Source: Isurus oxyrinchus
Lineage: Eukaryota
Direction of reading: 5' to 3'
Length of the DNA stretch: 64,000 bases
Assembly: GCA_026770705.1 (NCBI GenBank)
Contig: JANJGN010000049.1
Span: forward strand, 1,116,001-1,180,000
This document shows, piece after piece, positions 499 to 63,311 of this stretch. The notes beneath the pieces were generated by a model that made no database searches, was not told where the DNA came from, and saw nothing but the letters and a program-made list of their open reading frames with translations. The position numbers were made by a program, and so were the translations under genes. The first letter of the stretch is position 1, and each line of letters starts with the position of its first letter.

Positions 499-568
499 CT
501 GAAACCCCGAGAGCTGCAAGGACAGGGTAGTGAATGGCAAACAGCAGGCCCTTTGGTGATCCATGCAT
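499..568 (-). CDS. Exon 1 of GPR139-like GPCR copy 0 (exon 2 would lie left of the window)
   Basis: Reverse strand reads MHGSPKGLLFAIHYPVLAALGVS+G over 70 nt, followed by a GTGAAG donor at 498. Same length, phase and sequence type as the four plus-strand first exons. Functional status cannot be judged here. Confidence 0.85.
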
Positions 569-760
569 TTCTGACGGAATCGCTCAAAGCGTTGAGTATT
601 CAGTCAAAGTTTGTCAAATTTATATTCATTGGCAGGCTCCAGGGAGATGATGACATGATTTGCATTTTTTTAACATTTATTGCGCTGAAGTAAACAAACA
701 GATTTTTTGCAGCTGCTGTCGGACCCTTGTTTATTCTTTGATGCAATTGAATTTTTTTTC
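569..760 (-). promoter_or_regulatory. Proximal promoter of GPCR copy 0
   Basis: On the minus strand: CAGCTG (710-715), TCATCA-TCTCCCTGGAGCC (about 635-653) and TATAAAT (618-624), at the same offsets from ATG as in the other copies. Confidence 0.7.
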
Positions 761-3449: not shown

Positions 3450-6400
3450 CAATAATTAATGTTACATACCAATGGTTGGCGGGATATGTGACACATTGGA
3501 GGCCAAGGTGAAAGCATTCAAGTTGCAGCCCTGTTTCAACCAATTCTACCACCACCACGCACAGCAGGTATGGATACAACATTCTCGTACCACTGATTTG
3601 ATCAAGTAACAACATCATGCCTGAAGACAGAAAGCATTGAAGTCAGAAACAAGGGTTTTTTTCAAGACTGGCATTGCCTGTTATATCTGCTTACGTTGTA
3701 GCTGATCAAAACATCCTTGCTACATTATCCATTGAGGTGCAATGTGATATCCTCCGCCTGCAGGAGACACATACAGGGAGTGAGAACAACTGCCCAAAAA
3801 TAACAGGAACGTTCCTGGTTAATGAAAGACCTCATCGACAATATGGCAGTGCTGTATTTGTTAGAGCTGGTTCAGTTGTAGAAACCACTTCGAAAACAGA
3901 GGAGGACAGCATCGAAATTATAACTGTAGAGCTGAGCAAAGTAGTAGTGACCTCAGTGTACAAGCCACCTGGCACAGATATCAGCTTCTCTAACCCTTTA
4001 CCCAACTGCACAGTAATCCACAGATCATCATTGGAGACTTTAATAGCTACAGTACCCAATGGGAGTACAAGGGGTCTAATAGCGATGGAGAAGCAGTCGA
4101 AGAATGGATGGACGCTAACCAGCTTAGCATGATCCTCGATCCGGAAGTACTAGCCCTTTTCCACTGTGCCCGCTGGAAGTGTAGTTATAACCCAGATCTT
4201 GCCATTGTCAGCAACGACATTGCTGACATCTGCAAGAAGCTTGTCGCAGAGACAAAACCACAGACACAACACCGGCCTATTGGTATCTAGGTAATTGCAG
4301 CAGTGTTATCAACTGTCGTACAATTCAAAAGGTGCTTCAGCTTCAAGAAGGCCGATTGGAACGGCTTCATACGAGCACTTGACTGTAAGGTTAACGCATT
4401 AAACCATTATCTGAGCACTACAACCTGTTTGCAAAAGCTGTTCAGAAAGCAACTAGAAGGAATATCCTCCGAGGTTGTAGAGCACACTACATCTCTGGTC
4501 TCACCAAGGAGAATGCTGAACTCTACTGGGAGTATGCCTCAGTGTTTGAATCTGACCCCTTCTCAGAGGATTCAATACCTACCGGTGAGAGGGTGATATT
4601 AGGTATCTCCCAAGAGCGTCAAACCATCTGGGACACCTTGATAGAGACAACAGTTCTTAGAAAAAAACAGCAAGAAGGCATGGTCTCTCATATGCAAACT
4701 TGGAGGCAATCCCAAGAAAGCTGCTCAACATCCAAATGTGCCTGCAAACCAAGTTGCACACCAATTGCTCCTAAATGGAAAAATCAACAAGAAACAACCA
4801 AAAGCACAACTAGATAGGAAGAAGGACAGCAATGACCCTGGATTCACTGGACCATTCACCAAAATGGAACCATTCACCACGCTGTAAAATGGTATATCTA
4901 CTCTACAACAGGGGAAAGCAATTGCTCTTGACAACATAGCAATGGAGCAGATAAAGCATTTTGTACAGGAAGCAAAGAAATAACTCCTACAATTGTTTAA
5001 CCACTGCCTGGCAACACACAAGCTACCTAATATTTGACAGAAGGCACATGTAATAGCACTATTAAAGCCCGTAAAAGATCCCTCAGATCCTAAGAATTCT
5101 TAGCCAATCTCATTGTTTTGCCACACCAATAAGCTGTTTGAAAGCCTGATACTCAATAGGATAGCGCCAACTGTAGATGAGAAGATGATTCCAGAGCAAG
5201 CAGGTTTCCACCCCGGCAAATCAACGAGTCAACTGCTCAACCTCACACAGCATATCTAAGATGGTTTTGAGCAAGGGCTGGTAACAGGTGCTGTTTTTGT
5301 AGACCTGTCAGCAGCATACGATGCAGTGAACCATAGACGTCTCCTCTGCAAGATCCTAGAGATGACAAAAGATATTCACTTATCAGAGCTGTTAGAACGC
5401 ATGCTTCAGAATCGCTGGTTCGATGTTGAACTAGGTGGGAAGCGCAGCAGATGGCATATTCAGAAGATTGGTCTCCCTCAGGGAAGCGTGCTTGCACCAC
5501 TGCTGTACAACATCTCGAATGACCAACCTATAGACAGTGTAACACACCGTTTCATATATGGTAATGATTTATGTGTCACTGCCCAAAGCACTGTTTTAAG
5601 ACCGTGGAAAAATCGCTTTCTGTGGCCTTGGAGGGACGAACATCCTACTATGAAGAAAACCAACTTTGCGCAAACCCTTCAAAGACGCAGGTTTGTGCAT
5701 TCCACCTCAAAAACCGTGAAGCCAAATGTCAGCTTAAAGTAACCTGATGTGGAGCAATACTGACGGATTTCGAGCACCCAATTTACTTAGGAGTCACCCT
5801 TTACAGGTGCCTCACCTTCAAGCACCACATCGAAAAGACAAAGGCAAAAGTGAGCACACGAAACAACATTCTGAACAAGCTCACTATCACAAAATGGGGA
5901 GCAAGCACGAAAACATTGCGAACCAGTACACTTATTCTTTGCTATTCTACTGCTAAATACACCTACCCTGCATGGGAAATATCTACTCATGCTAAGAAGA
6001 TGGATGCCGTTCTCAATGCAAGCTGCCGACGTATCACAGGTTGTATAAAACCAACAAACACCAACAGCCTATATATCCTGGCCGGTATCCCCCCCACTCA
6101 TATAAGAAGAAAGAAAGAAAGCAAGAAAGAGCGACTTCGTCAAACATCAGAAGAGAGGCACCCTCTACATGGTCATACACCTACAACCAGCAGCCTAAAG
6201 TCAGGGAAGACCTTCATGAACAGTATTGTTCCATTACAATCAATCCGACCTGAAGCCCGCATCGCCTTGTGGAAACATCGACACTCCAGTCTCGAACAAC
6301 CCCCAGCGATGGAAATTGTACCGGATGAAAGCCTTCCCCCAGGGGCTAACTGCAACAGGGCAACCTGGAAGTGCCTTAATAGGCTTAGGACTGGCGTAGG

Positions 6401-6610
6401 TCGTTCAAAGGCAAATGGGGATATACAGCCAGCTCGACAACTTGTGAATGTGGAACTGAACCACAGACTGTGCAACATCTCCTGCAATACCTACCGCTAC
6501 GGGAACCCTGCACTGTTACAGAGCTTGCCGAATTCAACAACAGGCACAAAAATGTGTCCAGATCTAGCTGGGCCATGCACAGACTGTCCATAGACACAAT
6601 AAGTAGAAGT
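3450..6610 (+). mobile_element. Near full-length, decayed Vingi-like (Ingi/I-group) non-LTR retrotransposon with APE endonuclease and RT
   Basis: Broken single ORF from about 3617: CDIL-LQETH, VYKPP, YNPDL (APE); GLPQGSVLAPLLYNI, RFIYGND (RT); RNNILNKL-KWGA, RRITGCIKPT, ERHPLHGH, LNRLRTGVGRSK; ends GACACAATAAGTAGAAG. About 3 kb with no ORF1 or RNase H. The 5' boundary is approximate and the clade is assigned from recalled motifs. Confidence 0.8.
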
Positions 6611-10329: not shown

Positions 10330-10507
10330 TCATCCCATCAAAAGACAAGCATACACCTGGTAACAGCTGCAATTATATATTCTTTTCAATCAATATAATT
10401 AATTAAAAATAATAATGCATCTAATTATGTCCCTGGAGCCTGGCATTTAGCATAAATGTGACAGTTTTGCAGAATAGTAGAGAATGCGCTCGAAACTTCT
10501 GTCAGAA
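10330..10507 (+). promoter_or_regulatory. Proximal promoter of GPCR copy 1
   Basis: CAGCTG 10364-10369, TAATTAATTA about 10397, TAATTA 10422-10427 followed by TG-TCCCTGGAGCC, and CATAAAT at 10451. Conserved across paralogs. Confidence 0.75.
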
Positions 10508-10577
10508 ATGCACGGAGCACCAAAAGGTCTGGCTTTTGCCATTTTCTATCCTTTCCTGGCAGCTGTCGGGATTCCAG
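10508..10577 (+). CDS. GPR139/GPR142-like class A GPCR copy 1, exon 1 (N-terminus and first half of TM1)
   Basis: ATG at 10508, MHGAPKGLAFAIFYPFLAAVGIP+G, GTAAAG donor at 10578. The phase-1 junction joins in frame to 12830. Confidence 0.9.
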
Positions 10578-10649
10578 GTAAAGTATTGTTGGCAGTTACT
10601 ACCTTACCGTATCACTGAATAGCTATTTTAATGGTTCCATCCAGCAGTA

Positions 10650-11000
10650 ACTCTTCCTCCATGGTACAATATGCCTCCTCCATTTAAAGTGATAATTTAC
10701 CTGTCTTTTATTTACTTTTTAACTGAGCACTTTCTCTCCTTATAGCGGGCATAATTGGGCTTAATTTAAAGTATAATTTTAACACTTTAAATATTAATGC
10801 TAACTTTCTCAATGTTAACGCTATAATTAATTTCTTTTGATGACACGATTTCTCACCTTTAACGGTGTCCTTTCAAACAATTCACCAACATGTTTTTCTT
10901 CACCCTACCGGTGTAACATTTTCCTTTGTAATATTATACTGTAATTCTTAACCAATACCACTCCGCCCCTTTAATTATACAATTCCTACTATTACCATAG
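10650..11000 (+). repeat. Degenerate 22-bp repeat at the 5' end of the copy 1 intron
   Basis: Consecutive 22-mers CGCTATAATTAATTTCTTTTGA / TGACACGATTTCTCACCTTTAA / CGGTGTCCTTTCAAACAATTCA. Confidence 0.6.
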
Positions 11001-11589
11001 CATCACACGTGTAAATATATTTTCTTGCGTTATTGGCATTGTTGCTGTGGGTAAAGTGTCACATTATTAACCAAATGTAAGCGTAGTTTGATTATGTTAT
11101 TAGCATTGTTAGTTTTGGTGGATTAACACATGGTTATCTCGGTGTACAAATAGCTCTCAAGCGTCTTTTTTTGTATCGACAATAATTAATATCCACAAAT
11201 ACATTTCTGATTTAAATTGTTTAACCATTAAATTATTCTCGGTTGAATTTTAGGCATGAATTTATTGACAGAACATTATTCGATATCGATGTTTAACAGA
11301 AATCTAAGCTATGTGACAATTATCCATTTTCTCAGTCAGTCTGTGTTGTTTTCCCAATCTCACAGTCGCTGTGCTTTTGCTCCCAGTTTCTAACATTCAA
11401 TAGTTAAGGCCAGTTCTTGCTTTCCGCATTACTGCTGCTGAATGTTCCAAAATGAGCCCTGCTGGATTCTAGTGTTCTTTCTGTTCCTAACACCAGGAAA
11501 GTTCCGGGAATATATCCGTTTCACTATTTCATCAACATTACGTGAGGTTGTTTGAATTTCAGCATCTCTCTTATCCGAGTTAAAAAATA

Positions 11590-11830
11590 TTAAAGACAAA
11601 ATGTGCTGGAAAAAGCTCAGCGGCTGTGGCAGCATGTGTTGAGAGAGAAAGAGGCTTAATATTTCGAGTCCGTATGACTCTTCTTCGGAACAGCAGTCCT
11701 ATTGAACTCGAAGCCCTAGCTCTACTTATCTCTCCACACCTGCTGCCAGGCCGGCTGAGTTTTTCCCAGCATTCCTTTTTTTCCCTTTTAATTCAGATCT
11801 CCAATGTCCGCAGCATTTTGTTTTTTTTTT
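11590..11830. mobile_element. Penelope-derived inverted-repeat (palindromic) element
   Basis: GCTGGAAAAAGCTCAGC..GGCAGCA..GAGAGA..TTTCGAGTCC pairs with AACTCGAAG..TCTCTCCACACCTGCTGCC..GCTGAGTTTTTCCCAGC. Confidence 0.7.
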
Positions 11831-11999
11831 AAATTAGTATTATATTCAATACCCACTCTCTGTGAAGCTGAACATTAATCCACGGAACATAAGCCAGGAT
11901 GATGCATTATAGGAAGAGTTTTCTCTGATTAAGATCCCCTCTTTTGCCACTCCACTTGGTTCAAATCGAACTGGCGATTCTTTATTCTGTCATAGAGTG

Positions 12000-12290
12000 T
12001 GGTGGAATTGGCAAGGAAAGTGTTTCTTCTCTATCCCTAATTATCCTTGAACCAATTGGCTTATCAGACCATCATATAGGGCAGTCAATCGCATTGCGGT
12101 GAGTCTGCAGTCACATGTGCAGACCAAACCAAGTAATGGTAGATGCCATTCTAGTGATCCCGATGAGGTTGTATGATAAACAACAATAATTATTGCATCA
12201 TTATGGGAAGTAGCTTTCAATTACAGATTTCTTATTTAATTAATTCTTCCCGGATTATTTGCCCAGTGATATAATTACTTTGCCACTATC
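12000..12290 (-). mobile_element. Old SINE-like copy (family of 960-1310)
   Basis: ATCCCTAATTATCCTTGA...GCAGTCACATGTG inverted tail and body. Confidence 0.55.
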
Positions 12291-12829
12291 TGCTGGTTGA
12301 CTACATAAGCAGGCGGCCGGTGATTTAACTTGTCTTTGCCAACATGCCCTCGCAAATTAGGGATACGATAATTGTACGTTCACTTCTCGGTGATGCTTTC
12401 GAACATGATTATTGTCGTGGATTCGAGATGTGAGTATTTTTACATATGTTGATCGGACGAGGACGCTCTAGGCCCTTAGTGGGATGTGACCTTTGAGAAG
12501 TGAATGTTTTTGTATGTCTTTGATTGAACTAACTTCCGATGGCTCCTTGTTTTCCATTATCTTCCATTTTATTATTGTTCGCTCTGATGTCTTTACGCCA
12601 CCTTATTGCGAATAAGGATGATAATTTTACTTGCAGAAACAGTGCCCGGATAGGGAGCCGTAGTTTCCAACTCAATATCACGGATAAAGATACAGATATC
12701 AATGAAATTGCTGCAAAGCCAATGGTTTTGTTTGATGTCGGTTTAATAACGTTTCCTTCCTCGCTGTGTCACACACATACGTTCTCCAAATTTCTTTATT
12801 CTCTCTCTGTCTCTCTGTCTGTGTTCCAG

Positions 12830-13740
12830 CTAATTTGGTGGCCATTGCTATTCTCTCCCGAGGAAGGTGTGGTCTTTCCAGGTGCATCACTCGGTACCTG
12901 GTAGTCATGGCAATGGCGGATCTCCTGGTCATTATTACCGGCGTGATCTTAAACAGGATTGTTGGCATTTATTTCCCAGTGAGTTTCTTGTCCATCACGC
13001 CGTTATGCAGCCTTCGCTCCGTACTGAACTCTGCAACTTTTGGCACTTCTGCCTGGTTAACAGTCGCTTTTACCTTTGATCGATTTGTGGCCATTTGCTG
13101 CCAAAAGCTGAAAATAAAATATTGCACAGAGAAGACGGCGACGTACGTTATATGTGTAGTTTGTACAGTGAATTGTTTCAAATCTTCGTTCTTGTATTTT
13201 ATATATGAGCCCATGTACATAAGTAACAATATTCCCTGGTTCTGCAGCGTAGAAATTGCTTTTTATACATCACCTGCATGGGCTGCATATGACCTGATTC
13301 TTCACATTTTAATGCCTTGTCTCGCATTCATTCTAATCTTACTGCTCAATGCTCAGACCGTCAAACGCATTCTAAAGGCCAGTAGAGCCCGCAGGAGACT
13401 CCGGACCCAGAGAGATGGAGAGAATCAGAGTGACCCAGAAATGGAGAACCGGAGAAGGTCCATCGTCTTACTCTTCTGTATCTCGGGCAGCTTCATCCTG
13501 TTGTGGATTTGGTTTCTAATTAATTGTCTCTATGTCAGAATTGCGAGAGTCACGTATTTCTCTGGTTCAGATTTCAATGGGCTAAATTTTATTCTGGAGG
13601 AAACCGGAATAATGCTTCAGCTTTTGAGTTCCTGCATCAACCCGTTTATTTATGCAGGGACCCAGAGTAAGTTCAGGGAGGATTTAAAGAATGCGCTGAA
13701 ATTACCATGGATTCTCATTGTAAAATTTATTCAACAATAG
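12830..13740 (+). CDS. GPR139/GPR142-like class A GPCR copy 1, exon 2 (intact; spliced product 326 aa)
   Basis: Polypyrimidine tract and CAG acceptor at 12827-12829, then an open frame to TAG. Rhodopsin motifs: ANL (TM1), MAMADLL (TM2), FTFDRFVAIC (DRY-like), ECL2 PWFC, NPFIY (NPxxY) and helix-8 KFRE. Confidence 0.93.
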
Positions 13741-22519: not shown

Positions 22520-22701
22520 GAAAAACATTCCATCCAACTGCAATAAAACAAACACCAGTCCCAGCAGCAGATTCACTAATTTGTTTCTTACAAAATTAAT
22601 TAAAGTTATTGCAAACCAGCTAATTATCTCCCTGGTGCCATCAGGTATAAATTTGTCAATTTTTGGTGCAGTGCTGAACGCGCTCAGACCTTCTCATTGA
22701 A
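22520..22701 (+). promoter_or_regulatory. Proximal promoter of GPCR copy 2
   Basis: CAGCAGCAGATTCACTAAT, TTAATTAA, TAATTA-TCTCCCTGGTG (22621-22637) and TATAAAT (22646-22652). Confidence 0.7.
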
Positions 22702-23179
22702 ATGCATGGATTACCAAAAGGCCTGCTCTTTGCCATTTACTGTCCCGCCATTGCAGCTATCGGGGTTCCAGGTAAAGCTAGTAAGTAGCTGCATGAATTA
22801 TTGGTGAGCTATATCAGTGCTCCCATTTTAGCAGTAGCGCATCTCCATGTAACCGATGTTGTTTTCCAATCTAATGGAATATATTTTCTGTTTTCTTTTC
22901 AATTAACTGCCTTAATTTCTCTTCCGCTATCATTCTTCCACTTTAATGGTATTATCTCTCCATTTGACACAATATTTTCTTCAATTTACCTGCATAATTC
23001 CGCAGTATTAATGCTATAATTCCTCCCCTTCAACAGTCTTACTTAATCCTTTTACCAGCGAAGTATATTTACATTACCTGCATATTTTCAACCCTTTAAC
23101 TGATTTTCTCGTGTTAAGCATCATTTTATCACATGAATTGAATAATTTGTCCCAGTTATCACGCCATTTCGAGATGAGT

Positions 23180-23600
23180 AAAATTGGATTGCTCTTTTGG
23201 ACGTTACTGTGTTTAAATTAATACAATATTATCATGATATGAAGGCAATTCTATTGCATGTTTGACAATGCTATTGTGGGGGGATTGCCATTAAGTTATT
23301 CTGGTGCAAAGAGTGTTCAATTGTGACATTGGTACTGTTCCTGTGGCTACATTTTCAAACCGTGATAACAGTGTAATTGGAGTTCTAATGTGCCATTGTC
23401 TGTGACAGAGAGAGGAGTATTACAGTATCATCCCTGTGAACACGTAGATCAACTGAGCTACAGACATTGTGTTTGTGAGTGAATTAAGTCGCCGTTTTCA
23501 CTGTGCGATTGCAACTCAGTTGTATTGTTGCCACTGTTACTGTGGGCGAATTATGATAGCGTGGTCACTGTGAGTGTAGATCTATTGACTTCGATAATGG
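23180..23600 (+). repeat. Degenerate roughly 66-bp tandem repeat in the copy 2 intron
   Basis: The ATTGTG..ATTG..ACTGTT.CTGTGG motif recurs at about 23187, 23252, 23319, 23386, 23450, 23518 and 23583. Confidence 0.6.
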
Positions 23601-23649
23601 GGGGATAATTCCCACATGTACTTCATTGATTGAGGTGTGAACACTTTCT

Positions 23650-23880
23650 GACTGGGTGGTCTTGTGGTGTAGCGGGTAGCGTCTCTGCCTGTGAAGCAGA
23701 TATTCTGGATTCAAGCCAGGGCCTGATGATCTCGGGAGGTGCGGACATAAATGGCTAAATAGGTTGAAAATTAAGCTGCAACTCCTTCCAACACATAGAT
23801 GACAGCCGCTAAGCCCAGTAGAGGCTCCTGGTCAGCCAGAAGATGTGGCAGTTGTGGCGCAAGAACCTCCTGACGTTAAA
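23650..23880 (+). mobile_element. tRNA-derived SINE
   Basis: TCTTGTGGTGTAGCGGGTAGCGTCTCTGCC...GGATTCAAGCC head; a related copy lies at 53730-53850. Confidence 0.55.
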
Positions 23881-26199
23881 AGGCTGCGCATTCACCTTCT
23901 TCCCACGGGATGTACTTCATCGCCATCGCCCTCATCGCTTCAACGGGCAATCACTCAACAAATTCCTGAATGATTTCATTGAAAGGAAGCTATTGGGCAG
24001 TGAAATGCTCAAAGATGTATAAGTAAAGTAAAGAATTGTCCATGGATGACTAATTGGCATATGTCTCTCACTCACAGAGCATGGTGTTTCTGCACTCAGT
24101 CTACCCCACTCACTTCTTCATCCGGCTCTCCTCTTCCTCATGCACTATTGCTGTTTGTTCTAAGTTGATGACTGCTGCAGTGGGATTCCCTTCTGTTCCT
24201 AGCACGCGGCAATGTCTCGGAATTTCTCAGCATTAATTGAGGACCCGTAAGTGGCTGTACCCTCTCGGAAAATATATAATATTTTTATTCCAAATATTCG
24301 TCCTTGGCTGCACATGGCTGTTATACGGACTGTGGAGTGCAGGACGGGGGAAGTGTTGCATCGTGGAAGATTATTTCTCTAAAGGAGACCACGTCAACTG
24401 CCAATGGTTCTATTAGTTGAGATCGACACCCAAAATTATCAGGTGATTATCAGGTGAAGAGTTCCAACATACTCTGCATCCTGCATAAAATGTCCACCGC
24501 ATAGTTGGAAGTGCTAATGTTCCAAACGCTTCATTCTGTTTGAGAGTATGTTTTACACTGTTCATTACAGACATTTTAAACAGTGAATAAGTTCACAGAA
24601 TTTCATTTGTAGGACCAACTTCTGATCCTCAGTGAGACATAATCCGTGTTCTTGTTAGATTTCACACTTGTTGGATGCTTTATTTGTCTACTTCAATAGT
24701 TTCTATAGCTCTTCGATGATGGGTTTTCATTTTTGTGTGTTCCATTATTCTGTGTTATAGACAAGTTTTGATTTCCTTTTCATTCTCTGTTAAGTTTCAT
24801 GAGAATATATTTTATTCGCAAACCATTGGCTCAATTTCTTTTGAAACAGAATCATTATTTCAAACCCAAAATAACCGCCCATAGAATGAAAGATAATTTC
24901 CAACTGAGTATCAAGTCTCGAAGCTATACGTTTCACACACAACTGTAAAAAGAATGATTTTGTTTGAAGACAAGCAAGGCATTTTCCTGTTCTCAACCTA
25001 ACTCACACACATTGTCTCTGTCTCTCTCTCTCTCCCTTTCTCTATTGCAGCTAATTTGGCAGTGATCATGATCCTGCCTCGAAGAAGATGCGGCCTCTCT
25101 GGATGTATCACTTATGACGTGGTGTCCGTGGTGATGGATCTCCTGGTCATAGTTACAGCTGTAATATTGAACCGAATTGCTGGGATTTATTTCCCATTCA
25201 GCTTCCTCTCTGTCACACCAATGTGCAGTCTCCTTTCTGCACTAACTTTTGAAGCTATAGACAGTTCTGCCTGCTTAACAGTTGCTTTCACCTTTGATCG
25301 ATTTGTGGTCATTTGTTGCAGGGAGCTGACACGAAAATATTGCACCGAGAGGATGGAAGCATGAGTAAAAGGAATCGTATCCGCACTGAGCTGTGTAAAA
25401 AATGCTTTCTTGTATTTTATATAACAACCGAGATACACAATTAAAAATATACCCTGGTTCTGCACTGTAAAAATAATATTTTACAAGTCGCCAGCATGCG
25501 CCACATATGACTGGATTTGTTTCATTGTAACCCTTTTTCTCCCATTCATTCTGATCTTATTCCTAATGCTCTGACTGCCATGTACATTCTAGCGGCCAAT
25601 AGTGCCCGCAGGAGACTCTGTATCCAGAGTATTGGACAGAATCAGAGTGACCCAGAGATGGAGAAGCGGACAAAGTCCATACTTTTACTTTTTGCCATCT
25701 CGGGAAGTTTCATTCTTTTATATTTGCTCTTTTTTGCAACTATCCTCTATGTCCGAATTGCGAAAGTAATCTATTTCTCAGGATTCACTTCTACTCAAGG
25801 AACATTTACTCTTGAGGAAAAAAAGATTTATGCTTTAGTTATTGTCCTCCGGTATCAACCCGTTTATTTATTCAGGGACCCAGAGTAAATTCAGGGCCGA
25901 GTTAAAGAATGGGCTGAAATACCCACTGAACATTTTGATTAAATTATTTAAAATTGGATAGTAGGTAAATTCTGCTGAACTGTACGTTATTTCCCAATAC
26001 TTCATCTCCTACTCTGTGCCACGTAAGACCACGCATCCAAGATCCTCTCGGTTTCAAATCCATTCCCAATGTGTCAATATAAAAATGAATAAGGAAAACA
26101 GCATCACTGCAGGATTAAGTGAGAAAAATCATCACAATTAGTTTCCTGTTCTCTTACCGGTACTTACTCAGGCCTGGTGCATCCCAGCAGCCTCGATGG

Positions 26200-40834: not shown

Positions 40835-41043
40835 GAAAGAAAACATTCCATTTCATTAAAACAAAAACAACAGGTTAGCAGCAGCTGCACTAATCTGTTT
40901 GCTACAGTAACTAAATTGAAGTTGAATTTAAATTAATTAAGCAAGATTTCAAAACAACTAATTAGCTCTCTAGAGCCTGGCAAGAGGACTAATAGTGACC
41001 ATACTCAGTGGATTGCAGAGCACGCTCAGAGCTTCTGAAACAA
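40835..41043 (+). promoter_or_regulatory. Proximal promoter of GPCR copy 3 (partly decayed)
   Basis: CAGCTG 40882-40887, TTAATTAA, TAATTA 40959-40964 followed by GCTCTCTAGAGCC. The TATA position is mutated. Confidence 0.65.
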
Positions 41044-44000
41044 ATGCATGCAGGACCAAAAGGTCTGGTGTTTACCATTTATTGTCTCTTCCTTGCAGTT
41101 ACCAGCGTTCCAAGTGAGACATTGAGGTTACTTAGCAGTTGTGTTAAGTTATTGTTTAGCTGCATAAATTCTCATAATTATCCGTAGCGCTTCTTTATGT
41201 CACATACATGCCTTCTCCCGTTTCATGGAGTATAATGTTCCTGTCCAGGACTATAATGTGCTTTGTTACAGGGCACAATTTACCCTCTTTTACAGCATGA
41301 CTCATTCACGTTAACAGCATTAATTCACCACTTTAAAATTATGATAACTGAATTAATGACATAATTTCACGGTTTATTGTTATAATTTCTCCACTTTTAA
41401 CATTACCATTTCACTGATTTACCAGCGTAATGTCTTCATATTATCTATATTGCGGACAGCCTTTAGCTTCCATTGTCTTGTTATGAAAGGTAGAATTTTA
41501 TCTCTTCTATTATATTATTTCTTCCATCTATGTCCAACATCTGACGATGAAGATAATTTTTGATTGTGTTATTGACCCTGTTACTGTTGTTAAAAAAATA
41601 GCGCTATCACGGTGTAAAGGGAATTCCATTGTGCTATTGTCAGTACAATTTTGGCTGAATTAACACAAAGTTGTTGTGGTGTAAATTTTGTTCTATTGTG
41701 GCATCGACCCCTTCTCTGATGGTGATCTCTCACACAATGCGGATGAAATTTGATTCTGTTATTGGCTCTGTCACTTGGAGTGAATTCTCACATTGTTAAA
41801 ACTAAGCAGTTTTGTTTTGTCTGGTTGACTCTGACAGCAACGGAAAAATTCCGACCCATGAATCATTTCTTGAAATATTTAAACCATCGAAGGATCTCCA
41901 CTGAATTTAATGGATTGATATAATGAAGGAACTTTATTAGCCACTGAAATGTTGAGACGTATAACAATGCTGTAGATGTCCTTTGCCAGTGAGCTCAGTG
42001 CTTCTGTTCTAAGCCTCTAACACCCCCTGCTTCAGCCAGGCACTCCTCTCCGAAATTCTCTGCTGCTGATAGTTCTAGATTCCTTATTGCTGAGCAGGGG
42101 ATTTTCTTTTGTGCCGAACATCCGACGTTGTCTCTGACTGTTCACATCATCGTGATTTTCTCCACATTAATTGAAGCCCCAGAAGTGGCCTCATCCCTCA
42201 CATGAGCCACATAACACCCTTCTTTTAAATATCGACAACACGATAAATGTCATAATTTATCCCAATACCACAGTGTAACGCCCAGTAAATGGCACACTTA
42301 GGAGCATCTTTAGCCAAATGTCACCTCCTCATTGCCAGTTCCACTGATTCGGATCGACGCAGAAGACCTGAGTTTATGATGAGGCAAAGATCTCAGGTTT
42401 GCCACTGCCTCCAATCCAAAGTGTCCACTGCAAATTCGGAGATATGTGACTGTTTAGTGGCATCATTTTGTTGTGGATGCTTTTGAGCAAGTTGCCGGCC
42501 GGATTTTCCAACACGAAGCACATTTTTATTGCCTTATTCTTTCAGGTTCTGTGGGCCTTGCTGACTGGACAGCATTTATTTCCCATCCCTAATTGCCCTA
42601 GAGAAGTTGGGGTGAATCGTCTTATTGAACCACTGCAGCTCATGTAGTTATAGGTACTCCCACAGCACTACTAGGAAGGGATTTACAGGATTCTGCCCCA
42701 AAGAGATTGAGGGAATTGAGATATAGCTACAGGTCAGTTTAGTGTGTTGCTTGGAGGGGAACTTACAGGTGGTGCTCCAGTGTGTCAACTTCCCTTTTCC
42801 ACCGAGCTAGTAGAGGTCCCAGGATTGGAATATTCTGTTGAACATTGCAACTTGTATACAGTACACACTTCTGTTCCTGCGTTTAACGGTGGTGGCAAGA
42901 GTGAATGTTGAAGGTGGAGGATGGGGTGACAATTAAGTAGGCTGTGTATTTTTCCTGTATGATGTCAACTTTCTTGAGTGTTGTTGGAGCCAAAGTCATC
43001 CAGTCAAACTGGAAACATCCATTCAGCCGCCTGAACTGGGCATTTGATGGTGGACATACTTTGTGGAGACATGTGGGTGAGTTATTCACACCTGTCCTGT
43101 TCTTCATCTAAAATATTTAAATTGCTGGTTCAGTTCGGTCCCTGGTCAATTTCTCATCCAGGATGCTCACAAAACATTGAAAGTAGCCTCTGTGGAATAA
43201 TTGGAGGTATAAACCGTCTTCTTGATATTTTCTGCACTTACACTTGCTCGTTGTGTTATTTAACGGCATCAATGCTTATTATATATAGATTTGCAGATTG
43301 AAACAATTATTATGTACTCGATGTTCTGGTGTCATCTCTAATAAGTTTTAAACATTTTGTTGTCCTCTATTGGCCTGATTCTCATATTTTGCATTATAAT
43401 GCCATTGACTTGCCCTAGTTCCTTGATCTGGATGAGTACTTTTTATTCCAGTAAACAGTTGTTCCCCTCCAACTGAGGGTCGCACTACAAAGTTTTAAAG
43501 TTCACTCAGGATTATTTGAAACATATGAATATGTTACCCGTCGTTCTGCTCTCTCTCTCTCTTTCTCTCTGTCTCTCTGTATTGCAGCAAACTCGGCAGT
43601 GATTGTGATCCTCTGTCGAAGAAGGTGCAGCCACTCCAAATGTATCAATTATTACCTGGTGTCCATGGCAGTGACAGAAATCTTGGTCATGGTGACCGCG
43701 GTAATATTAAACAGAATTGTTGGAAATTATTTCCCATCTAGTTTCCTGTCTATCACACCAATTTGCAGTTTTCGTGCTGCCTTAAATACGGCAGCAATTG
43801 ACTGTTCTGCTTGGTTAACAGTTGCTTTCACCTTTGATTGTTTTGTCGCCATTTCTTGCCAGAAGCTAAAAATAAGATATTGCACCAAATAGATGACAAC
43901 ACGGGTTATTGTAATCGTTTTGGTACTGAATTGCATAAAAAATATCTTCATATATTTTGAATTTGAACCGAGGTGTATTATTGACAATATACCCTGGTTC

Positions 44001-44485
44001 TGTATCATTATACTTTGCTGGCATGGATATCATTTGACTGGCTTCGTTCCATATTAACCCCTTTTCTCCCAATCATTCTGATTTTACTGCTCAATGCTCT
44101 AAGCGTAAAACACATTCGAGCAGCCAATCGAGCCCGCAGGAATCTCCAGACCTAGCGCAATGGAGAGAATCAGAGTGATCCAGAGGTGGAGAAGCGGAGA
44201 AAGTCCATTGTTTTAATCTTTGGCATCTCGGGAACTTTTATCCTCTCATATTTGATATTTCTTGTAAACATTATTTATGTCCGAAGAGCCAATGTTACCT
44301 ATACCTCAGATTCTGATTTCAGTAATGTCGCATTCATTCTCCAGCAATTTGGATATATTCTTCAGCTATTGAGTTCCTGCATCAACCTATTTATTTATGC
44401 TGGGACCCAGAGTAAAATCAGAGCCGAGTTAAAGAATGGGGTGAAATATCCACTGAACCAAATTATTAAAACATTTAACATTTGA
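41044..44485 (+). pseudogene. GPR139-like GPCR copy 3, pseudogene (exon 1 41044-41113, exon 2 43588-44485)
   Basis: Exon 1 MHAGPKGLVFTIYCLFLAVTSVP with GT donor. DRF is changed to DCF; stops at 43890 and 44153; deletion near 44010. Confidence 0.92.
42535..43150 (-). mobile_element. CR1/L2-group LINE 3' end in the copy 3 intron
   Basis: Inverted tail CAGCATTTATTTCCCATCCCTAATTGCCCT and the peptide WMTLAPTTLKKVDIIQEK-LIVTPSSTFNIHSCHHR. Confidence 0.75.
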
Positions 44486-54162: not shown

Positions 54163-55554
54163 TCTTTTGCAGTTATTAATCATAATGCGAGGGATACAGA
54201 GGAAAGTGCCCCCCTGAACCTGACAAGGGATTGGGATTGTGCGTTGAGTGTTTTGGTTGGTTTTGTGAGGGCAGGGGAAACCCAGCGTATTTTCTGGAGG
54301 GTTAAGGGATGGTGGAAAATAGAACAGGCAGTCTATTTGGCTCTCAAAACCATGACAGTGTGGATATCCTCAGCTGAGGGAAATGAATTCCCTATTTGAG
54401 CATTGGTATGAAAGGTGAATACTCAGAGGAGTTGTTTTGCAGATTCAGAAAAACCGGAGAATGCAATGCACAATTTATAGGAAGCTGTGTGCGAGGAAAT
54501 GATGCTGTTGGAGTCAGTGCGCTGATGGTGAATTTGGATAGCCTATCTCCAGGAATTGAAAAGCATATTCAAGGAAATGAACGGAAGAAACTGAGGGGGA
54601 CAATATGAAGGTGTGGGAATGTTGGAAATTTGAAATAAGGTTAACTGCTATCCCGAACAGTGTTTGAGAGCAGGAGATTGAACTCAGAAATGTGCCGGAG
54701 AAGGAGATGAGGGTGGGGGCCTGAGGAAGAATAAAACAAGCAAAATTTTATGCATTGTGGAGTAAAGCAACCGATATAGTTAGGATCCATTCCTGTATCT
54801 ATAGCAATATCTTGTTTTCACAGAGGTGACTGGAGTGAAAGGAGAAGTGTTTTTATTGAGTGCGACAGCAGATTCAAGTAGGGAAGGGCTGTGTTCTCGT
54901 GATGGATCGAAATTAGTTGGAAGTTATCTCAAGAAATGAACAAATATCTGTCAGTCTACCCTGGTAGGGGATGGGGGAAAAAGAAATGGTTATGGACAGG
55001 AAACTGGGAACTTTCAATGTGGCGGTGGCATTAGGCATGTCACAGGTTGGGGTGGAAAGAGACTGAATGGGGCGTTTCCAAAATGCATGGAGGCACGCTG
55101 ACCAGACACGGTCCACACATAGTGGGACAGTAAAGAATAAGGCCTTTGCAAAAGTAATATATTCGTGTTCATACAACCAAAAGCCCAATTACTGAAGACC
55201 TGTTGAAAAGGTCCCGTGCACACTAAACATAAAAGGTGTGTAAAGAGGGCATTGTGTACCTGAATTTAAAATACAACATTTCGGAAACATACCGCGTGTC
55301 TGACAGCGTCTGTGGCAAAAGAAACTGAATCGTTCTGAGATTCTACAGCATTTTATGTAACAATTTCTGACCAAATATAACTTTGGGAGTTGCACAGCTA
55401 CATTAAGTCAGTAACCGTACTGAACTGAAATGTCCAATCTGAAGGCAATCCTGCTGAATAGGATTTTGTCGATTTACAGTTGTGCTGTATAGAACTGAAC
55501 TTGTGTAAGCAGAAAGAAAATGCCTTGTGTAACGCAGATGAACAAAGATGTGTC

Positions 55555-58500
55555 TCCATGATGAACTGAAACAGTCCACACTGAATGTCCCAAAGCTGAA
55601 CTGAACCAGTCCACACTGAATATCCCCATGCCGAACTGAACCAGTCCACACTGATTGTTATCATGCTGAACTGAAACAGACCACACTGAATGTCACCGTG
55701 CTGAACTGAACCAGTCGACACTGAATGTTACCATGCTGAACTGAACCAGCCCTCACTGAATGTTACCATGCTGAACTGAACCAGACCACACTGAATATCA
55801 CTATGCTGAACTGAACCGGACCACACTGAATGTCACTGTGCTGAACTGAACCAGTCCACACAGAATGTTACCATGCTGAACTGAACCAGTCCACACTGAA
55901 TGTCAACATGCTGAAATGAAACAATCCATACTGAATGTTGCCATGTTGAACGGAAAAAATTCCACACTGAAAGCCTCCATGCTGAACTGAACCAGCCCAC
56001 ACTGAATGTCACCATGTTGAATTGAACCAGCCCACACTGACTGTCACCGTGCTGAACTGAACCAGTCCACACTGAATATCACCATGCTGAACTGAACCAG
56101 TCCACACTGAATGTTACCATGCTGAACTGAACCAGTCCACACTGAATGTAACCAGGCTGAGCTGTAACAATCCGCACTGAATGTCACTTTGTTGAATGGA
56201 ACCAGTCCACACTGAATGTAAACATGCTGAAATTAACTAGTCCACACTGAATGTCACTAGGATGAGCTGTACCAGTCCAGACTGAATGTCACCACGCTGA
56301 ACTGTACCAGTCCTCACTGAAATTCGCCATGCTGAATTCAACTAGTCAATACTGAATGTCATCATGCTGAACTGAACCGGTACACACTGAATGTCACTAT
56401 GCTGAACTGTAACAGTCCACACTGAATATTACCATGCTGAACAGAACTAGTCCACCCTGAATGTCACTTTGCTGAATTGAACCAGTCCACACTGAATGTC
56501 ACCATGCTGAACTAAACCAGTCCACACTGAATGTCAACTTGCTGAACTGAAGCAGTCCACGCTGAATGTCACCATTCTGAAATGAAACAGTGCACGCTGA
56601 AAGTCACCATGCTGAACTGAACCAGTCCACACTGGATGTCACCATGCTGAACTGAACCAGCCCACAATGAATATCACCATGCTGAACTGAACCAGTCCAC
56701 ACTGAATATCACAATAATGAACTGTAGCAGTCCACACTGAATGTCACCATTCTGACCTGAAACAGTCCACACTCAATGTCACCATGCCGAACTGAACCAG
56801 TCCACAATGAATGTCACCATGCTGAATTGAACCAGTCCACACTGAATGTCACCATGCTGATCTGAAACAGTCCACACTGAATGTCGCCATGTTGAACTGA
56901 ACCAGTCCACACTGAATATCACCATGCTGATCTGTACCCATCCACATTGAATGTCACCATGCTGATCTGTACCAGTCCAGACTGAATGTCACCATGCTGA
57001 ACTGAACCTGCCCACACTGAAGGACACCATGCTGAACCAAAATAGCCCACAATGAATGTCACCATGCTGACTTGAACCGGTCCACACTGAATGCCTCTAT
57101 GCTGAACTGAATCAATCCACACTGAATGTTAACAGGCTGAATTGAACCAATCCACAATGAATGTCATCATACTGAACTGAACCAGTCCGCATTGAATATC
57201 ACCATACTGAACTGTAGCAGTCCACACTGAATGTCACCATGTTGAATTGAACCAGTCCACCCTGAATGTCATCATTCTGAACCGAACCAGTCCACAATGA
57301 ATGTCAGCATGCTGTACTGAACTAATCCACATTGAATGTCACAATGCTGAACTGAAGCAGTCCATACTGCATGTTAAAATGCTGAACTGAACCAGTCCAC
57401 ACTGAATGTCACCATGCCGAACTGAACCAGTCCACACTGAATGTCACCATGCTGAACTGAACCATTACACACTGAATGTCATCGTGCTGAACTGAAACAG
57501 TCCACCCTGAATGTCACCATGCTGAACTGAACCAGTACACACTGAATGTCACCATGCTGAACTGTACCAGTCCACACTGAATGTCACCATGCTGAACTGA
57601 ACCTGCCCACACTGAAGGACACCATGCTGAACCAAAACAGCCCACAATGAATGTCACCATGCTGACCTGAACCAGTCCACACTGAATGCCTCTATGCTGA
57701 ACTGAATCAATCCACACTGAATGTTAACAGGCTGAATTGAATCAATCCACAATGAATGTCATCATACTGAACTGAACCAGTCCGCATTGAATATCACCAT
57801 AATGAACTGTAGCTGTCCACACTGAATGTCACCATTCTGACCTGAAACAGTCCACACTCAATGTCACCATGCCGAACTGAAACAGTCCGCAATGAATGTC
57901 ACCATGCTGAATTTAACCAGTCCACACTGAATGTCACCATGCTGAACTGAAACAGTCCACACTGAATGTCGCCATGCTGAACTGAACCAGTCCACACTGA
58001 ATATCACCATGCTGATCTGTACCCGTCCACATTGAATGTCACCATGCTGAACTGTACCAGTCCAGACTGAATGTCACCATGTTGAACTGAACCAGCCCAC
58101 ACTGAAGGGCACCATGCTGAACCAAAACAGCCCACAATGAATGTCACCATGCTGACCTGAACCAGTCCACACTGAATGCCTCTATGCTAAACTGAATCAA
58201 TCCACACTGAAAGTTAACAGGCTGAATTCAACCAATCCACAATGAATGTCATCATACTGAACTGAACCAGTTCGCATTGAATATCACCATACTGAACTGT
58301 AGCAGTCCACACTGAATGTCACCATGTTGAATTGAACCAGTCCACCCTGAATGTCATCATTCTGAACCGAACCAGTCCACAATGAATGTCAGCATGCTGT
58401 ACTGAACTAATCCACATTGAATGTCACAATGCTGAACTGAAGCAGTCCATACTGCATGTTAAAATGCTGAACTGAACCAGTCCACACTGAATGTCACCAT

Positions 58501-59275
58501 GCCGAACTGAACCAGTCCACACTGAATGTCACCATGCTGAACTGAACCATTACACACTGAATGTCATCGTGCTGAACTGAAACAGTCCACCCTGAATGTC
58601 ACCATGCTGAACTGAACCAGTACACACTGAATGTCACCATGCTGAACTGAAGCAGTCCACACTGAATGTCACCAAACTGAACTGAACCAGTACACACTGA
58701 ATATCACCATGCTGATCTGTACCCGTCCACATTGAATGTCGCCATGCTGAACTGTACCAGTCCACACTGAATGTCACCATGCTGATCTGAGCGAGCCCAC
58801 ACTGAAGGACACCATGCTGAACCAAAACAGCCCACAATGAATGTCACCATGCTGACCTGAACCAGTCCACACTGAATGCCTCCATGTTGAACTGAATCAA
58901 TCCACACTGAATGTTAACAGGCTGAATTGAACCAATCCACGATGAATGTCACCATACTGAGGTGAACCAGTCCGCATTGAATGTCACCATGCTGAACTGA
59001 ACCAGTCCACACTGAATGTCACCATTTTGAACTGAAGCAGTCCACACTGAATGTCACCATTCTGAACCGAATCAGTCCACAATGAATGGCAACATGCTGA
59101 ACTGAACTAATCCACACTGAATGTCACAATGCTGAACTGAAACAGTCCACACTGCATGTTAAAATGCTGAACTGAACCAGTCCACAATGAATGTCTCTAT
59201 GTTGAAATGAACCAACCCACACTGAACGTCTCTGTGTTGAACTGACCCAATCCATACTGAATGACACCATTTTGA
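55555..59275 (+). repeat. 35-bp tandem minisatellite, about 106 units, consensus ACTGAATGTCACCATGCTGAACTGAACCAGTCCAC
   Basis: Unit starts at 56071, 57016, 57611, 58101, 58801 and 59221 are exact multiples of 35 apart. Degenerate flanks extend to about 55410 and 59950. Confidence 0.97.
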
Positions 59276-60054: not shown

Positions 60055-60244
60055 AAAGAACATTCCATGCAATTAACTCCTGAACACAAGCTGAGCAGCA
60101 GCTGCACTAATCTGTTTTTTTTAACCTAAATGTAATTAATGTAAAGTTTCAGGCCATCTAATTATCTCCCTGGAGCCTGGTATCGTGTATAAATATGACA
60201 GTTTGACAACGATTTGCAGAACACGCTCAGAGAGTCAGATAGAA
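60055..60244 (+). promoter_or_regulatory. Proximal promoter of GPCR copy 4
   Basis: CAGCTG 60099-60104, TAATTAA about 60133, TAATTA-TCTCCCTGGAG 60159-60175 and TATAAAT 60188-60194. Confidence 0.75.
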
Positions 60245-63200
60245 ATGCACGGAGCACCGACTGGTCTGGTGTTAGCCATTTACTAACCCGTCCTTGCAGC
60301 TATCGGGGTTCCAGGTAAAGTATTGTAGTTATTTTGTAACTTCAATTGTCAATGGTAGGCAGCATTAATTAACCCATATTGCCTGTCGCACATCCCCACG
60401 ATATGTTTTGTCCCATTTAATGAGATATACTTCCCCCTTCATCCGTGCACTTTTTTCCTTTAAATGGTATATATATATTTTTTTTAAGCCTGAACTACGT
60501 TTCCTTTGCTATTCTAACCATATCAGTTCGCCATTTTAAGGTTCCTTTTTGCCTAATTTAAGAATGCATTTTCTTCAATCTATTGATTTATTTTCTATTA
60601 ATGTGATAGTTTCTCCACTATCCCTTTTATTCCCCATCTTACCTTTATAATTCCCTCCCTGTAATGGTGCACTATCCCCCAATCGCTTTAATTATATATT
60701 TATATAATTTATATTATTTACTGTTAGCCATCTCACGATGTAAACATACTTCAATTGTGCTATCGGCACAATTGCTGTGGATTAATTATTTGCACCGTAT
60801 TGTTAAACATTAAAAGCAATTCCATTGTTGGCGCTGATACACAGGGAAAATAAGAGCGAGTGCAACGAAAGTTTACCTGACTGATTCCTGGCATGGCAGT
60901 GCTGACATATGAGGAGAGATTGAGTCGGTTAGGATTATATTTGTTAGGGCGCAGAAGAATGAGGGGGGGATATCATAGAAACCTAGAAAATTCTAACAGG
61001 AATAGACAGGGTAGATGCAGGGAGGATGGTCCCGATGGTGGGGGAGTCCAGAACCAGGGATCACAGTCTGAGGATATGGAGCAGACCACTTGGGGCTGAG
61101 ATGAGGAGAAATTTCTGCACATAGAGGGAAGTGAGCCTCTGGAATTCGCTACCACAGAAAGTAGTTGGGTCCAAAACATTGTACGTTTTTGAGAAGAATT
61201 TTGATATTCGCCCTCTTGGGGCTAAAGGGGTGAAAAGGTACGGGGAGAAAGCTTGAACAGGTTATTGAGTTGGATGATCAGCCATGATCATAATGAATGG
61301 CGGAGCAGGCTCGAGGGGCCGAATGGCCTACTCCTGCTCCTATTTTCCATGTTTCTATGTTTATATAATCATACCATTATCATGGAGTTCCTATGGGTGA
61401 TTAATCAAAATGTTGTTACAATGTGAATGAAATTTGATTTTCTAACTGGCTCTATAGAATAGCACGTTGTTATCAGGGTGTAATTGTACTTCCACTGTGT
61501 TGCCACAAGGTTCTTGTGAGTTTTATGACAGTGTAAAAATAGTTCAGTTGTGTTCTTGACCGTGTTCCCGTTGTTTATTGAAAAAAGAAATGTTAAAGTG
61601 CAAATGCATTTCTATTGATTTTTTGCCATTGCCATTAAAGGAATAATTCCCAATAATGGTTGAATGATCGATAATCGATTGAATATTTCCCAGCTGAACT
61701 TAGTAGCTCAAGTTACTAAGGAACATGATTAGGCACCGATTTTTGACAGATATTTTAGCAGTGTAAAAGTAACGTTTCGATGAATGATTGGTATTTGCCT
61801 CAAACTCAACGTTCTGTTTCTCAGTCTCAAACAAATTGAGCAAGTTGACTGCGGACATTTCCAAGACTCAGTATTTTTTTACAGTCATTCGTTGACTGGG
61901 GTCACTTTTGATGCTCAACCTGACATAATGTGTTTTCTGGCTAGTTTCCTCAGGTATTGTTCAATAGTTTTTTTTTTCAGCTGCATCGCTATTCTGGATA
62001 GAATTTGTCGATGTAGCAGATATTTTATTTTACTTTCTATCTATTTGCTGCTCCCATGTTTTTGGATGCCTTTGTGCTCTCTGCTGCATGTCATTATATT
62101 ATTCTTATGTCATTGACCTACCTTAGTTTCGGGATTATTATTTCAACCATGGAAACAATTGTCCCTAGCTTTTGGGATACTTTTGAACACATAATCACAT
62201 CTTAAATGTATTATTTTCACCAGAATCCTTTAAAGCATTATTTTTGAGGGATTGGCGGTTTGTTGGGGTGTGGTGGGGAAAAGAGTTGTGGGGCTGCAGG
62301 TGGAGGAAATTCAGAAAGTTTCTTGATCTTGATCTTGATCTCTCCCAGATGCATTTTCTCTCTATCTCTCTTGCTTACACAAGCTATCTTACAATATCTT
62401 TATCTGTATTACAGCTAACTTGGAAGTGATTGTGATCTTGTCTCGAAGAAGGTGTGGTCTCTCTAGATGTATCATTTGTTACCTGGTATTCATGGCGGTG
62501 ACGGATCTCCTAGTCATGATCACTGCTCTGATATTAAGCTGGATTGCTGGTATTTATTTCCCATACAGTTCCTTGTCCATCACGCCTGCTGCAGTCTCCG
62601 AACTTCCTTAATCTATGCAGCCATTGACAGTTCCGCCTGGTTAACGGTTGTTTTCACTTTTGACCGATTTGTGGCAATTTGTTGCCAGAAGCTGAAAATA
62701 AGATACTGTACCGAGAGGACAGCAGCAGTGGTTATAGGAATAGTGTCCACACTGAGCTGCGTAAAAAGCACGTTCATGTATTTTGCAAACGAACCTATGT
62801 ACTTAATTAACAATATACCTTGGTTCTGCAGGTTAAAGTCAGTATACTATACGTCACCTGCATGGGCTGCATATGACTGGGTTCGTTCCATTGTAACCCC
62901 GTGTCTTCCATTCATTCTGATTTTACTGCTCAATGCTCTAACCATTCGACATATTGTCTTGGCCAATAGAGACTCCGCAGGAGACTCCGGGCCCAGAGCA
63001 ATGAAGTCGACCAGAGTGACCTGGAGATGGAAAAGCGGAAGAAGTCCATGGTTTTACTCTTTGCCATCTCGGGCAGCTTCATCCTGTCATGTTTCTTATT
63101 TTTTATAATGGTGTTTTATGTCCGAATTGCCAATGTCCCTTACTTCTCAGGTTTGGATTTCAATGATTCTGCATTTGTTCTAGAGGAAAGTGGCTATCTG

Positions 63201-63311
63201 CTTCAGATCATGAGTTCCTGCATCAACCCATTTATTTATGCTGGGACTCAGAGAAAATTCAGGGCTGAGATAAAGAATGTGCTCAGCCTAATGTTTAAAT
63301 TATCTAAATAA
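60245..63311 (+). pseudogene. GPR139-like GPCR copy 4, pseudogene (exon 1 60245-60314, exon 2 62415-63311)
   Basis: Exon 1 MHGAPTGLVLAIY*PVLAAIGVP has TAA at 60284. Exon 2 retains DRFVAICC and NPFIY but has frameshifts near 62590 and 62970. Confidence 0.92.
60860..61362 (+). mobile_element. CR1 LINE 3' end in the copy 4 intron
   Basis: LTYEERLSRLGLY-LGRRRMRG and the tail GGGCCGAATGGCCTACTCCTGCTCCTATTTTCCATGTTTCTATG. Confidence 0.9.

Follow-up and report, generated by a model that had tools for sequence, protein, structure and literature searches.

A constrained homeodomain–O/E core-promoter composite in Isurus oxyrinchus and the large GPCR family behind it, a candidate olfactory receptor repertoire of sharks and rays

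The window analyzed in this study is a 64,000-nucleotide stretch of the Isurus oxyrinchus genome (GenBank assembly GCA_026770705.1, contig JANJGN010000049.1, positions 1,116,001 to 1,180,000, forward strand). It contains five paralogous promoters in which a homeodomain-like site stands directly before an O/E (EBF)-like site, and a preliminary description had read this composite as a sign of expression in olfactory sensory neurons. Does the composite reflect more than the common descent of the copies, and what does it indicate about the genes behind it? All five sites that had been described are present, starting at 10422, 22621, 40959, and 60159 on the plus strand and occupying 636–653 on the minus strand. 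Each promoter precedes a 70-base coding exon (MH start), an intron of 2–2.5 kb, and a second exon of 0.9 kb; exon 2 of the minus-strand copy lies outside the window. Among the five copies, the gene at 10.5 kb is the only intact one, and the other four have stops or frameshifts. The features are listed below in window coordinates.

499..653, minus strand: paralog 5, head to head with the intact gene (composite 636–653, ATG 568, exon 1)
10364..10369, plus strand: CAGCTG E-box of the MH-start subfamily
10396..10402, plus strand: upstream TAATTAA, a second homeodomain-like site
10422..10427, plus strand: homeodomain half of the composite, TAATTA (family consensus TAATTR)
10430..10439, plus strand: O/E (EBF)-like half, TCCC-TG-GAGC, 2 bp past the homeodomain site
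10451..10457, plus strand: TATA-like box CATAAAT (TATAAAT in most paralogs), starting 29 bp from the first base of the composite
10508..10577, plus strand: coding exon 1 of the intact receptor, 23 codons and 1 base (MHGAPK...), followed by a GT donor
10578..12829, plus strand: single intron, GT...AG, 2,252 bp, its splice predicted from alignment with NCBI protein models rather than from RNA
12830..13740, plus strand: coding exon 2 of the intact gene, open to the stop
22621..25952, plus strand: paralog 2, pseudogene (composite 22621–22638, ATG 22702, exon 2 at about 25,050–25,952 with stops and a frameshift)
40959..44479, plus strand: paralog 3, pseudogene (composite 40959–40976, degenerate TATA, ATG 41044, exon 2 with stops and a frameshift)
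60159..63308, plus strand: paralog 4, pseudogene (composite 60159–60176, ATG 60245, stop in exon 1, frameshifts in exon 2)

The intact gene (10508–13740) encodes a class A GPCR of 326 amino acids (Pfam 7tm_1 only), and seven helices are seen in the predicted model of a 75%-identical relative (pLDDT 86). The broken exon 2 of paralog 5 is located at C49:1111096-1111896, and a near-identical (99%) copy of the window gene and its region lies ~1.82 Mb downstream on the same contig. Repeats are present in and around the window: reverse-transcriptase retroelement fragments (5362–6593, a weak RVT_1 match) between the head-to-head promoters, a tandem repeat of a 35-bp unit in 106 copies (55551–59270), and a 15 kb degenerate array of a 21-bp unit inside the receptor cluster 70–85 kb to the left (C49:1029400-1044400). 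The 21-bp unit resembles the O/E half and yields many weak matrix matches.

The distance of 73–78 bp between motif and ATG given previously holds for the start of the O/E half; the 17-mer as a whole starts 81–86 bp upstream. The TATA-like box at −56/−57 was found in four of the five window copies, as reported, and is degenerate in the copy at 41 kb. Likewise, the CAGCTG E-box is present in four of the five, and TAATTAA in all four plus-strand copies. A pattern fitted to the five sites matched four times in the window (0.03 expected from shuffles); having been built from those sites, it shows only that the copies are paralogs rather than chance matches. Across the family, the composite reads TAATTR-NN-TC(C/A)C-NN-G(A/G)G(A/C/G), followed after ~11 bases by TATA, and its position is fixed at 29 bp before the TATA box. 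The E-box was rejected as a family-wide element, being conserved in the MH-start subfamily alone (13/20 promoters; 1/13 and 0/8 in distant subfamilies). The upstream homeodomain-like word TAAYTAA (8/20, 4/13, and 5/8 promoters) and a forkhead-like TGTTTR word, also upstream of the composite (8/20, 8/13, and 7/8), are spread more widely.

Conservation was examined with 20 MH-start promoters less than 80% identical to each other, kept from 45 that were gathered. Within the 330 bp preceding the ATG of these promoters, no 17-nt window is better conserved than the composite, in agreement with the earlier impression that the motif is better conserved than the sequence between. The pairwise identity is 0.73 for the composite (homeodomain half 0.78, O/E half 0.73) and 0.80 for the TATA box, and that of the flanks and the intron is 0.52–0.58 and 0.44, respectively. 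Four-fold sites of exon 1 reach the same level of conservation as the motif (0.72, 13 sites), and we count this match as a point against. As alignment error depresses non-coding identities, comparison with synonymous sites is the fairer one. In 10 genes with both parts (overall dN/dS of 0.23), the identity of the composite is 0.70 (homeodomain half 0.77, O/E half 0.71) versus 0.585 for four-fold synonymous sites of exon 2, 0.54 for the flanks, and 0.44 for the intron. The motif is thus more conserved than both the flanks and the synonymous sites, the two yardsticks by which the preliminary description could have failed. Because the motif passed this comparison, shared ancestry alone is unlikely to account for it.

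The proposal that the likeness merely records the ancestry of recent duplicates and has no function is largely refuted, and we regard it as hardly credible. It draws on the broken copies: the four window pseudogenes still hold high-scoring sites (21–29 bits), and three broken loci score as high as intact loci. The comparison of intact with broken copies gave no difference in decay, the loci (16 versus 3) being too few and too young to tell. The proposal is at odds with the excess of motif identity over exon-2 synonymous identity and with the persistence of the site between subfamilies, including those with skate and stingray members, whose distal DNA is unalignable. From the 20 MH-start sites we derived a matrix and used it to score 13 promoters from distant subfamilies, whose TATA anchors were called by pattern. 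The site 28–30 bp before TATA ranked first in 6 of the 13 (0.1 expected) and was in the top five in 11 (0.5 expected), and the distal DNA of these promoters aligned no better than the best shuffle in 13/13. Judging from these alignments, neutral ancestry cannot hold an 18-base word in place amid such diverged surroundings.

A further 20 promoters were held out, picked on exon-1 sequence alone; two of them have unrelated upstream DNA. An earlier run that needed a strict TATA call placed 5/20 of them and ranked the site first in 1/5; this call missed the AATAAA and ATTAAT variants and was replaced by a TATA-free test. Within 620 bp of the donor, 7/20 held-out promoters score at least 11 versus 2/60 upstream control windows (Fisher p 0.0006, a value that overstates certainty, as do the other p-values, since subfamilies are non-independent samples). 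Genome-wide, the exact 17-mer pattern has 26 matches (3 in the control), 20 of which are inside family clusters, and exon 1 follows in all 11 cluster matches that were inspected. The six matches outside the clusters have no family exon nearby and were treated as chance, given the three of the control. A looser pattern gave 170 matches versus 26 in the control. In the 272 kb around the window, five of the nine matrix matches scoring at least 15 are at promoters. The composite is a real, constrained core-promoter element. Two scans of metagenome contigs did not find exon 1, so that all promoter data come from one genome.

Which factors might read this element? In its right half, conservation is symmetric about a freer 2-bp center (positions 9, 10, 12 and 15, 17 are fixed), and because of this symmetry we read the half as an EBF-dimer-like site. 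The dimer consensus, TCCCNNGGGA, was taken from the preliminary description and is also seen in the OMP probe of PMC5608512. TCCCNNGRGA with at most one mismatch is present in 14/20 MH-start and 6/13 distant promoters (shuffles 1.0 and 0.7), and the best EBF reading has a mean of 1.4 mismatches with a 2-bp spacer versus 3.9 with 1 bp. By spacer, the held-out promoters gave 8/20 at 2 bp and none at 0, 1, 3, or 4 bp, with an expression that was written after the sequences had been viewed. The held-out promoter L185 has a perfect TCCC-TA-GGGA immediately before a TATA-like word.

The element also varies. In the MH-start subfamily, the EBF site mostly ends in C rather than A (15/20), distant subfamilies often have TCAC instead of TCCC (20/33), and the homeodomain half is lost in many of them (at least two mismatches in 11/13 promoters). 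The full composite is kept, further upstream, in a subfamily with a long N-terminus (L029, L074, L076, L136, L186, and L187), where its junction also reads TGACA on the opposite strand. The N-terminus of this subfamily (on C17, C18, C20, and C85) consists of tandem 14-residue repeats, each bearing an N-glycosylation sequon (WNVT). The TGACA word, together with the departures of spacer, terminal base, and TCAC variants from the mouse motif, could suggest a constrained element bound by other factors (TALE, STAT/BCL6-like, or zinc-finger), in which case the olfactory likeness would be coincidental and uninformative about tissue. We consider this quite improbable: the symmetry about two bases suits EBF better than a STAT site with its three-base center, and TCCCNNGRGA is found again at this position, perfect or nearly so, in L018, L117, L185, and L191.

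The mouse composite provides the closest published comparison. According to PMC5608512, it pairs a site for Lhx2 with a relaxed one for Ebf, the two being stereotypically spaced, and is found in 35 of 63 OR enhancers (the Greek Islands); PMC7804114 and PMC8213717 place it also in the class I J element and in TAAR enhancers, respectively. Both the mouse and the shark composite have TAATTR and, immediately after it at a fixed distance, a relaxed O/E site of the pyrimidine-purine type. The two differ in that the mouse composite has a 1-bp spacer and lies in intergenic enhancers, whereas the shark composite has a 2-bp spacer and occurs once per gene, 29 bp before TATA. The homeodomain plus O/E reading of the preliminary description fits, with EBF-like symmetry, and its likeness to mouse does not extend to spacer and promoter placement. 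Similarly, the statement that such composites are a signature of OR promoters and enhancers stands for enhancers; in two papers, the mouse composite, described in the first as a degenerate pattern with a 1-bp spacer, is depleted from OR promoters (PMC11643329, PMC12547500).

The published 17-position mouse pattern was matched exactly by 2/20 shark sites and with at most one mismatch by 15/20 (background 0.13% and 1.2% per position), though this pattern, used here rather than the original weight matrix, is so permissive that several matches occur in any promoter. Its position 7 was failed by 16/20 shark sites. When mouse sites were scored with the shark matrix, Sfaktiria reached 2.3 (top 0.2% of background) and the J-element sequence, reconstructed from primers, reached 14.4. 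By inference from these analogies, the shark element would work like the Greek Island composite, yet it is not a member of that set. Mammalian OR promoters, as described in PMC5318403 and PMC12547500, resemble the shark promoters in their AT-rich surroundings, in homeodomain and O/E sites no more than 100 bp from the start, in extra homeodomain words, and in a forkhead-like TGTTTR word upstream. They are usually without a TATA box and a fixed composite, whereas the shark promoters have both, and the shark genes are not ORs.

The family behind the element is very large. In the 4.98 Gb assembly, 1,775 places match a degenerate pattern for its TM3 motif, FTFDRF(V/M/I)AI, and 1,159 match a pattern for exon 1 plus the donor, with no match in the reversed control of either; these copies include pseudogenes and assembly duplicates. 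Near-identical duplicated blocks on C49 and on C38/C42, which are either unpurged haplotypes or recent segmental duplications, inflate the counts. Members sit in tandem clusters. Intact copies are 2/11 in the 272 kb around the window and 17/40 in a hand-picked sample of the TM3 list, and no stop is present in 113 of the best 130 matches, a sample biased to good copies. By extrapolation, there would be several hundred intact genes. Other chemoreceptors of the same genome comprise 3 strong OR-like matches, 3 ORA loci, and 37 NCD3G matches, the last corresponding to at most 37 V2R-like loci as they include non-V2R class C receptors. All of these lie at loci other than those of the family. In size, clustering, and pseudogene load, the family behaves like a chemosensory receptor repertoire.

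A database search returned 2,294 clusters passing E 0.001 among 3,919 candidates. The best relatives (69–75%) are from sharks and are labeled ‘probable GPR139’ or with assorted peptide-receptor names, and the named members listed are from galeomorph and squalomorph sharks, skates, and a stingray, with no chimaera among the names in these listings. In a tree of 69 proteins, made by a quick method with SH-aLRT support only, the 54 elasmobranch members form one clade (94) that is sister (100) to a salamander gene, with GPR139 on a long branch. Skate and stingray members nest inside subfamilies of the clade. The sister gene matched 20 amphibian clusters and one sturgeon, with no amniote among the 25 matches. 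This gene (P0229 clade) is a single conserved gene in frogs, salamanders, caecilians, and sturgeon, and is tractable in Xenopus or axolotl. GPR139/GPR142 is the nearest solved structure by sequence and fold (7VUG) and the origin of the NCBI label. The family is distinct from it, with ~22% identity and a separate locus and clade; identity with GPR139 was rejected, the true GPR139-type gene being a separate single copy on C15 outside the clade.

The modeled fold is nearest to GPR139 and peptide receptors at 16–22% identity, and the nearest solved relatives are the GPR139, TRH, PrRP, neurotensin, and GPR15 receptors. Membership in the OR or TAAR families was dismissed, as neither is among the 31 solved relatives. 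Pfam assigned 7tm_1, with sub-threshold Srx in 4/6 proteins. Two single-copy relatives were also observed. L103 (C9:126713131-126715850) shares 59% identity with a coelacanth protein and is conserved in reptiles, amphibians, bony fish, and sharks. In this assembly an in-frame TAA lies in its exon 2; judging from fused annotations, TMEM183A may be its neighbor, and the gene has no composite. L105 (C6:157839131-157840036) is a divergent member of the wider group with an open frame, 26–34% identity to the others, and a long branch.

Variability among 79 close paralogs was compared along the receptor with a pocket numbering set by motifs, which is approximate. Pocket-facing positions average 1.14 bits versus 0.69 for other helix positions (p 0.0005), and the rest of the extracellular half and the intracellular half show 0.95 and 0.54 bits, respectively. 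Charge swaps occur at several pocket positions. From these alignments, the variability of the extracellular half would fit a repertoire tuned to many ligands over a common signaling face. TAARs and formyl peptide receptors offer a parallel as non-olfactory class A lineages that expanded in clusters, and TAAR enhancers carry the composite (PMC8213717). The shark family differs in its lineage and its far larger expansion, and its olfactory role is read from sequence.

The kinship with peptide receptors bears on another alternative, an immune or barrier repertoire comparable to the formyl-peptide and Mas-related receptors, expressed in leukocytes or epithelia, with the O/E half read by EBF1 or an unrelated factor. 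The greater persistence of the O/E half than of the homeodomain half across subfamilies would agree with it, as would the report, in PMC8455134, that cartilaginous fishes are without MAS1-related receptors. Four presumed RNA runs of unrecorded tissue also contain paralog-like fragments: fragments of 80–90% likeness over exon 2 appeared in all four, and exon 1 pieces in one, with no exon 1–exon 2 joint in mapping at 80% likeness. The exon 2 fragments may be paralog transcripts from outside the nose; the cover is shallow and the runs are guessed to be RNA. A search for RNA datasets containing exon 2 of the intact gene listed none. The intron of that gene contains a short interspersed repeat (11610–11790) that is very abundant in all four runs. 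Set against an immune role, the homeodomain half stands at exactly the same 2-bp spacing in separate subclades (MH, long-N-terminus, L078, and L133), and a blood promoter driven by EBF alone would need no such half. We regard this alternative as unlikely.

Known chemoreceptor genes of the same genome were used as controls. Of 20 V2R loci taken, 13 gave exon 1 and a TATA box, and in 0/13 of these promoters was the composite in the top five at this position. All 13 share a short TATA-to-ATG layout, and in 4/13 an O/E-like word lies no further than 110 bp from TATA (0.6 in shuffles). Several V2R promoters (L141-L154, C2 clusters) have a common TTCTTTTGGGA-like word 60–80 bp before TATA that is O/E-like in another layout, and V2R locus L142 has a composite-like site on the opposite strand, 144 bp before TATA. 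None of the 100 looser-pattern matches listed falls in the C2 V2R cluster. Neither the ~49 kb around the OR pair on C11 nor the surroundings of the three ORA genes (start sites not placed in either) yielded a proximal composite. The ORs are weak controls, because PMC11979771 reports catshark ORs as not nose-specific. Among ~55 scattered off-cluster matches is a composite-like site (C4:194727753-194727769) that lies 10 kb upstream from a broken OR-like gene; as a single, at most suggestive case, it was not used as evidence. The comparison with V2R, OR, and ORA genes leaves olfactory use neither confirmed nor excluded and takes away the simplest positive control.

V2R promoters without the composite would also suit a chemosensory or other sensory repertoire deployed elsewhere than in the nose, with EBF and a different homeodomain factor as its drivers; its site might be the taste buds, the brain, ampullary or lateral-line cells, or the solitary chemosensory cells of skin and gill. 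Birth-and-death features suit any environmental sensor, and the sister gene is single-copy in amphibians and sturgeon and was not found in the amniotes of the search. We consider this location rather unlikely, as such an immediate pairing of homeodomain and O/E sites is described for the olfactory enhancers of OR and TAAR genes. The catshark list of the top 50 ‘brain and olfactory epithelium’ genes (PMC11979771) names no GPCR of any family and is neutral.

The explanation that we favor, and hold to be somewhat probable on sequence and analogy, is that the composite-bearing family is an unrecognized, very large olfactory receptor repertoire of sharks and rays, whose products would act as odorant or peptide sensors. 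Likeness to the published mouse sites suggests that the composite would bind a homeodomain factor (Lhx2/Emx2 type) and an EBF dimer, and the bound composite would switch each gene on in olfactory sensory neurons. As mechanistic guesses, each gene's own composite beside TATA may make a distant enhancer dispensable, one or a few family genes may be chosen per microvillous neuron, and the receptors may signal via Go/Gi and TRPC2. We count in favor of the olfactory explanation that the known shark receptors are few and label few neurons. Sharks have large noses, yet the catshark has 65 known chemosensory genes (PMC6368271). Its olfactory neurons are all TRPC2/Go-positive, the V2R co-receptor labeling 5.9 neurons per mm and other probes 0.45–2.8 (PMC10116579).

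Several observations count against the olfactory explanation: the lack of the composite at this position in V2R promoters; the 2-bp spacer, the terminal base of the EBF site, the TCAC variants, and the loss of the homeodomain half; the low score of the Sfaktiria site; the OR and ORA loci without a proximal composite; and the pocket variability, which is little above that of the rest of the extracellular half. EBF and TAATT-binding factors are active in many neurons and in B cells, and this breadth is counted against it as well.

The real weight of the finding is the family behind the motif. No account of it was found in the open full-text literature, the scope of our search (subscription journals lay outside it), and no description of a GPCR expansion of such size was found, whatever its tissue proves to be. 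The sole matching paper with both GPR139 and ‘cartilaginous’ mentions them separately (PMC12294341), and the whale shark paper describes cartilaginous fishes as relatively poor in GPCRs (PMC8455134). The chances seem to us evenly balanced that sharks and rays smell mainly by a fifth, undescribed family, namely hundreds of peptide-receptor-like GPCRs mislabeled GPR139 that arose from one ancestral gene expanded before the shark–ray split, with an Lhx2/EBF composite gained per promoter. If this is true, hundreds of intact GPCR genes with olfactory-type promoters would overturn the small-repertoire and GPCR-poor views, and the tiny olfactory repertoire of sharks would be an artefact of searching four known families alone. 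The family would represent a further independent origin of vertebrate smell receptors, and the Lhx2/EBF composite would work as a per-gene promoter element, possibly a form of receptor choice older than enhancer hubs.
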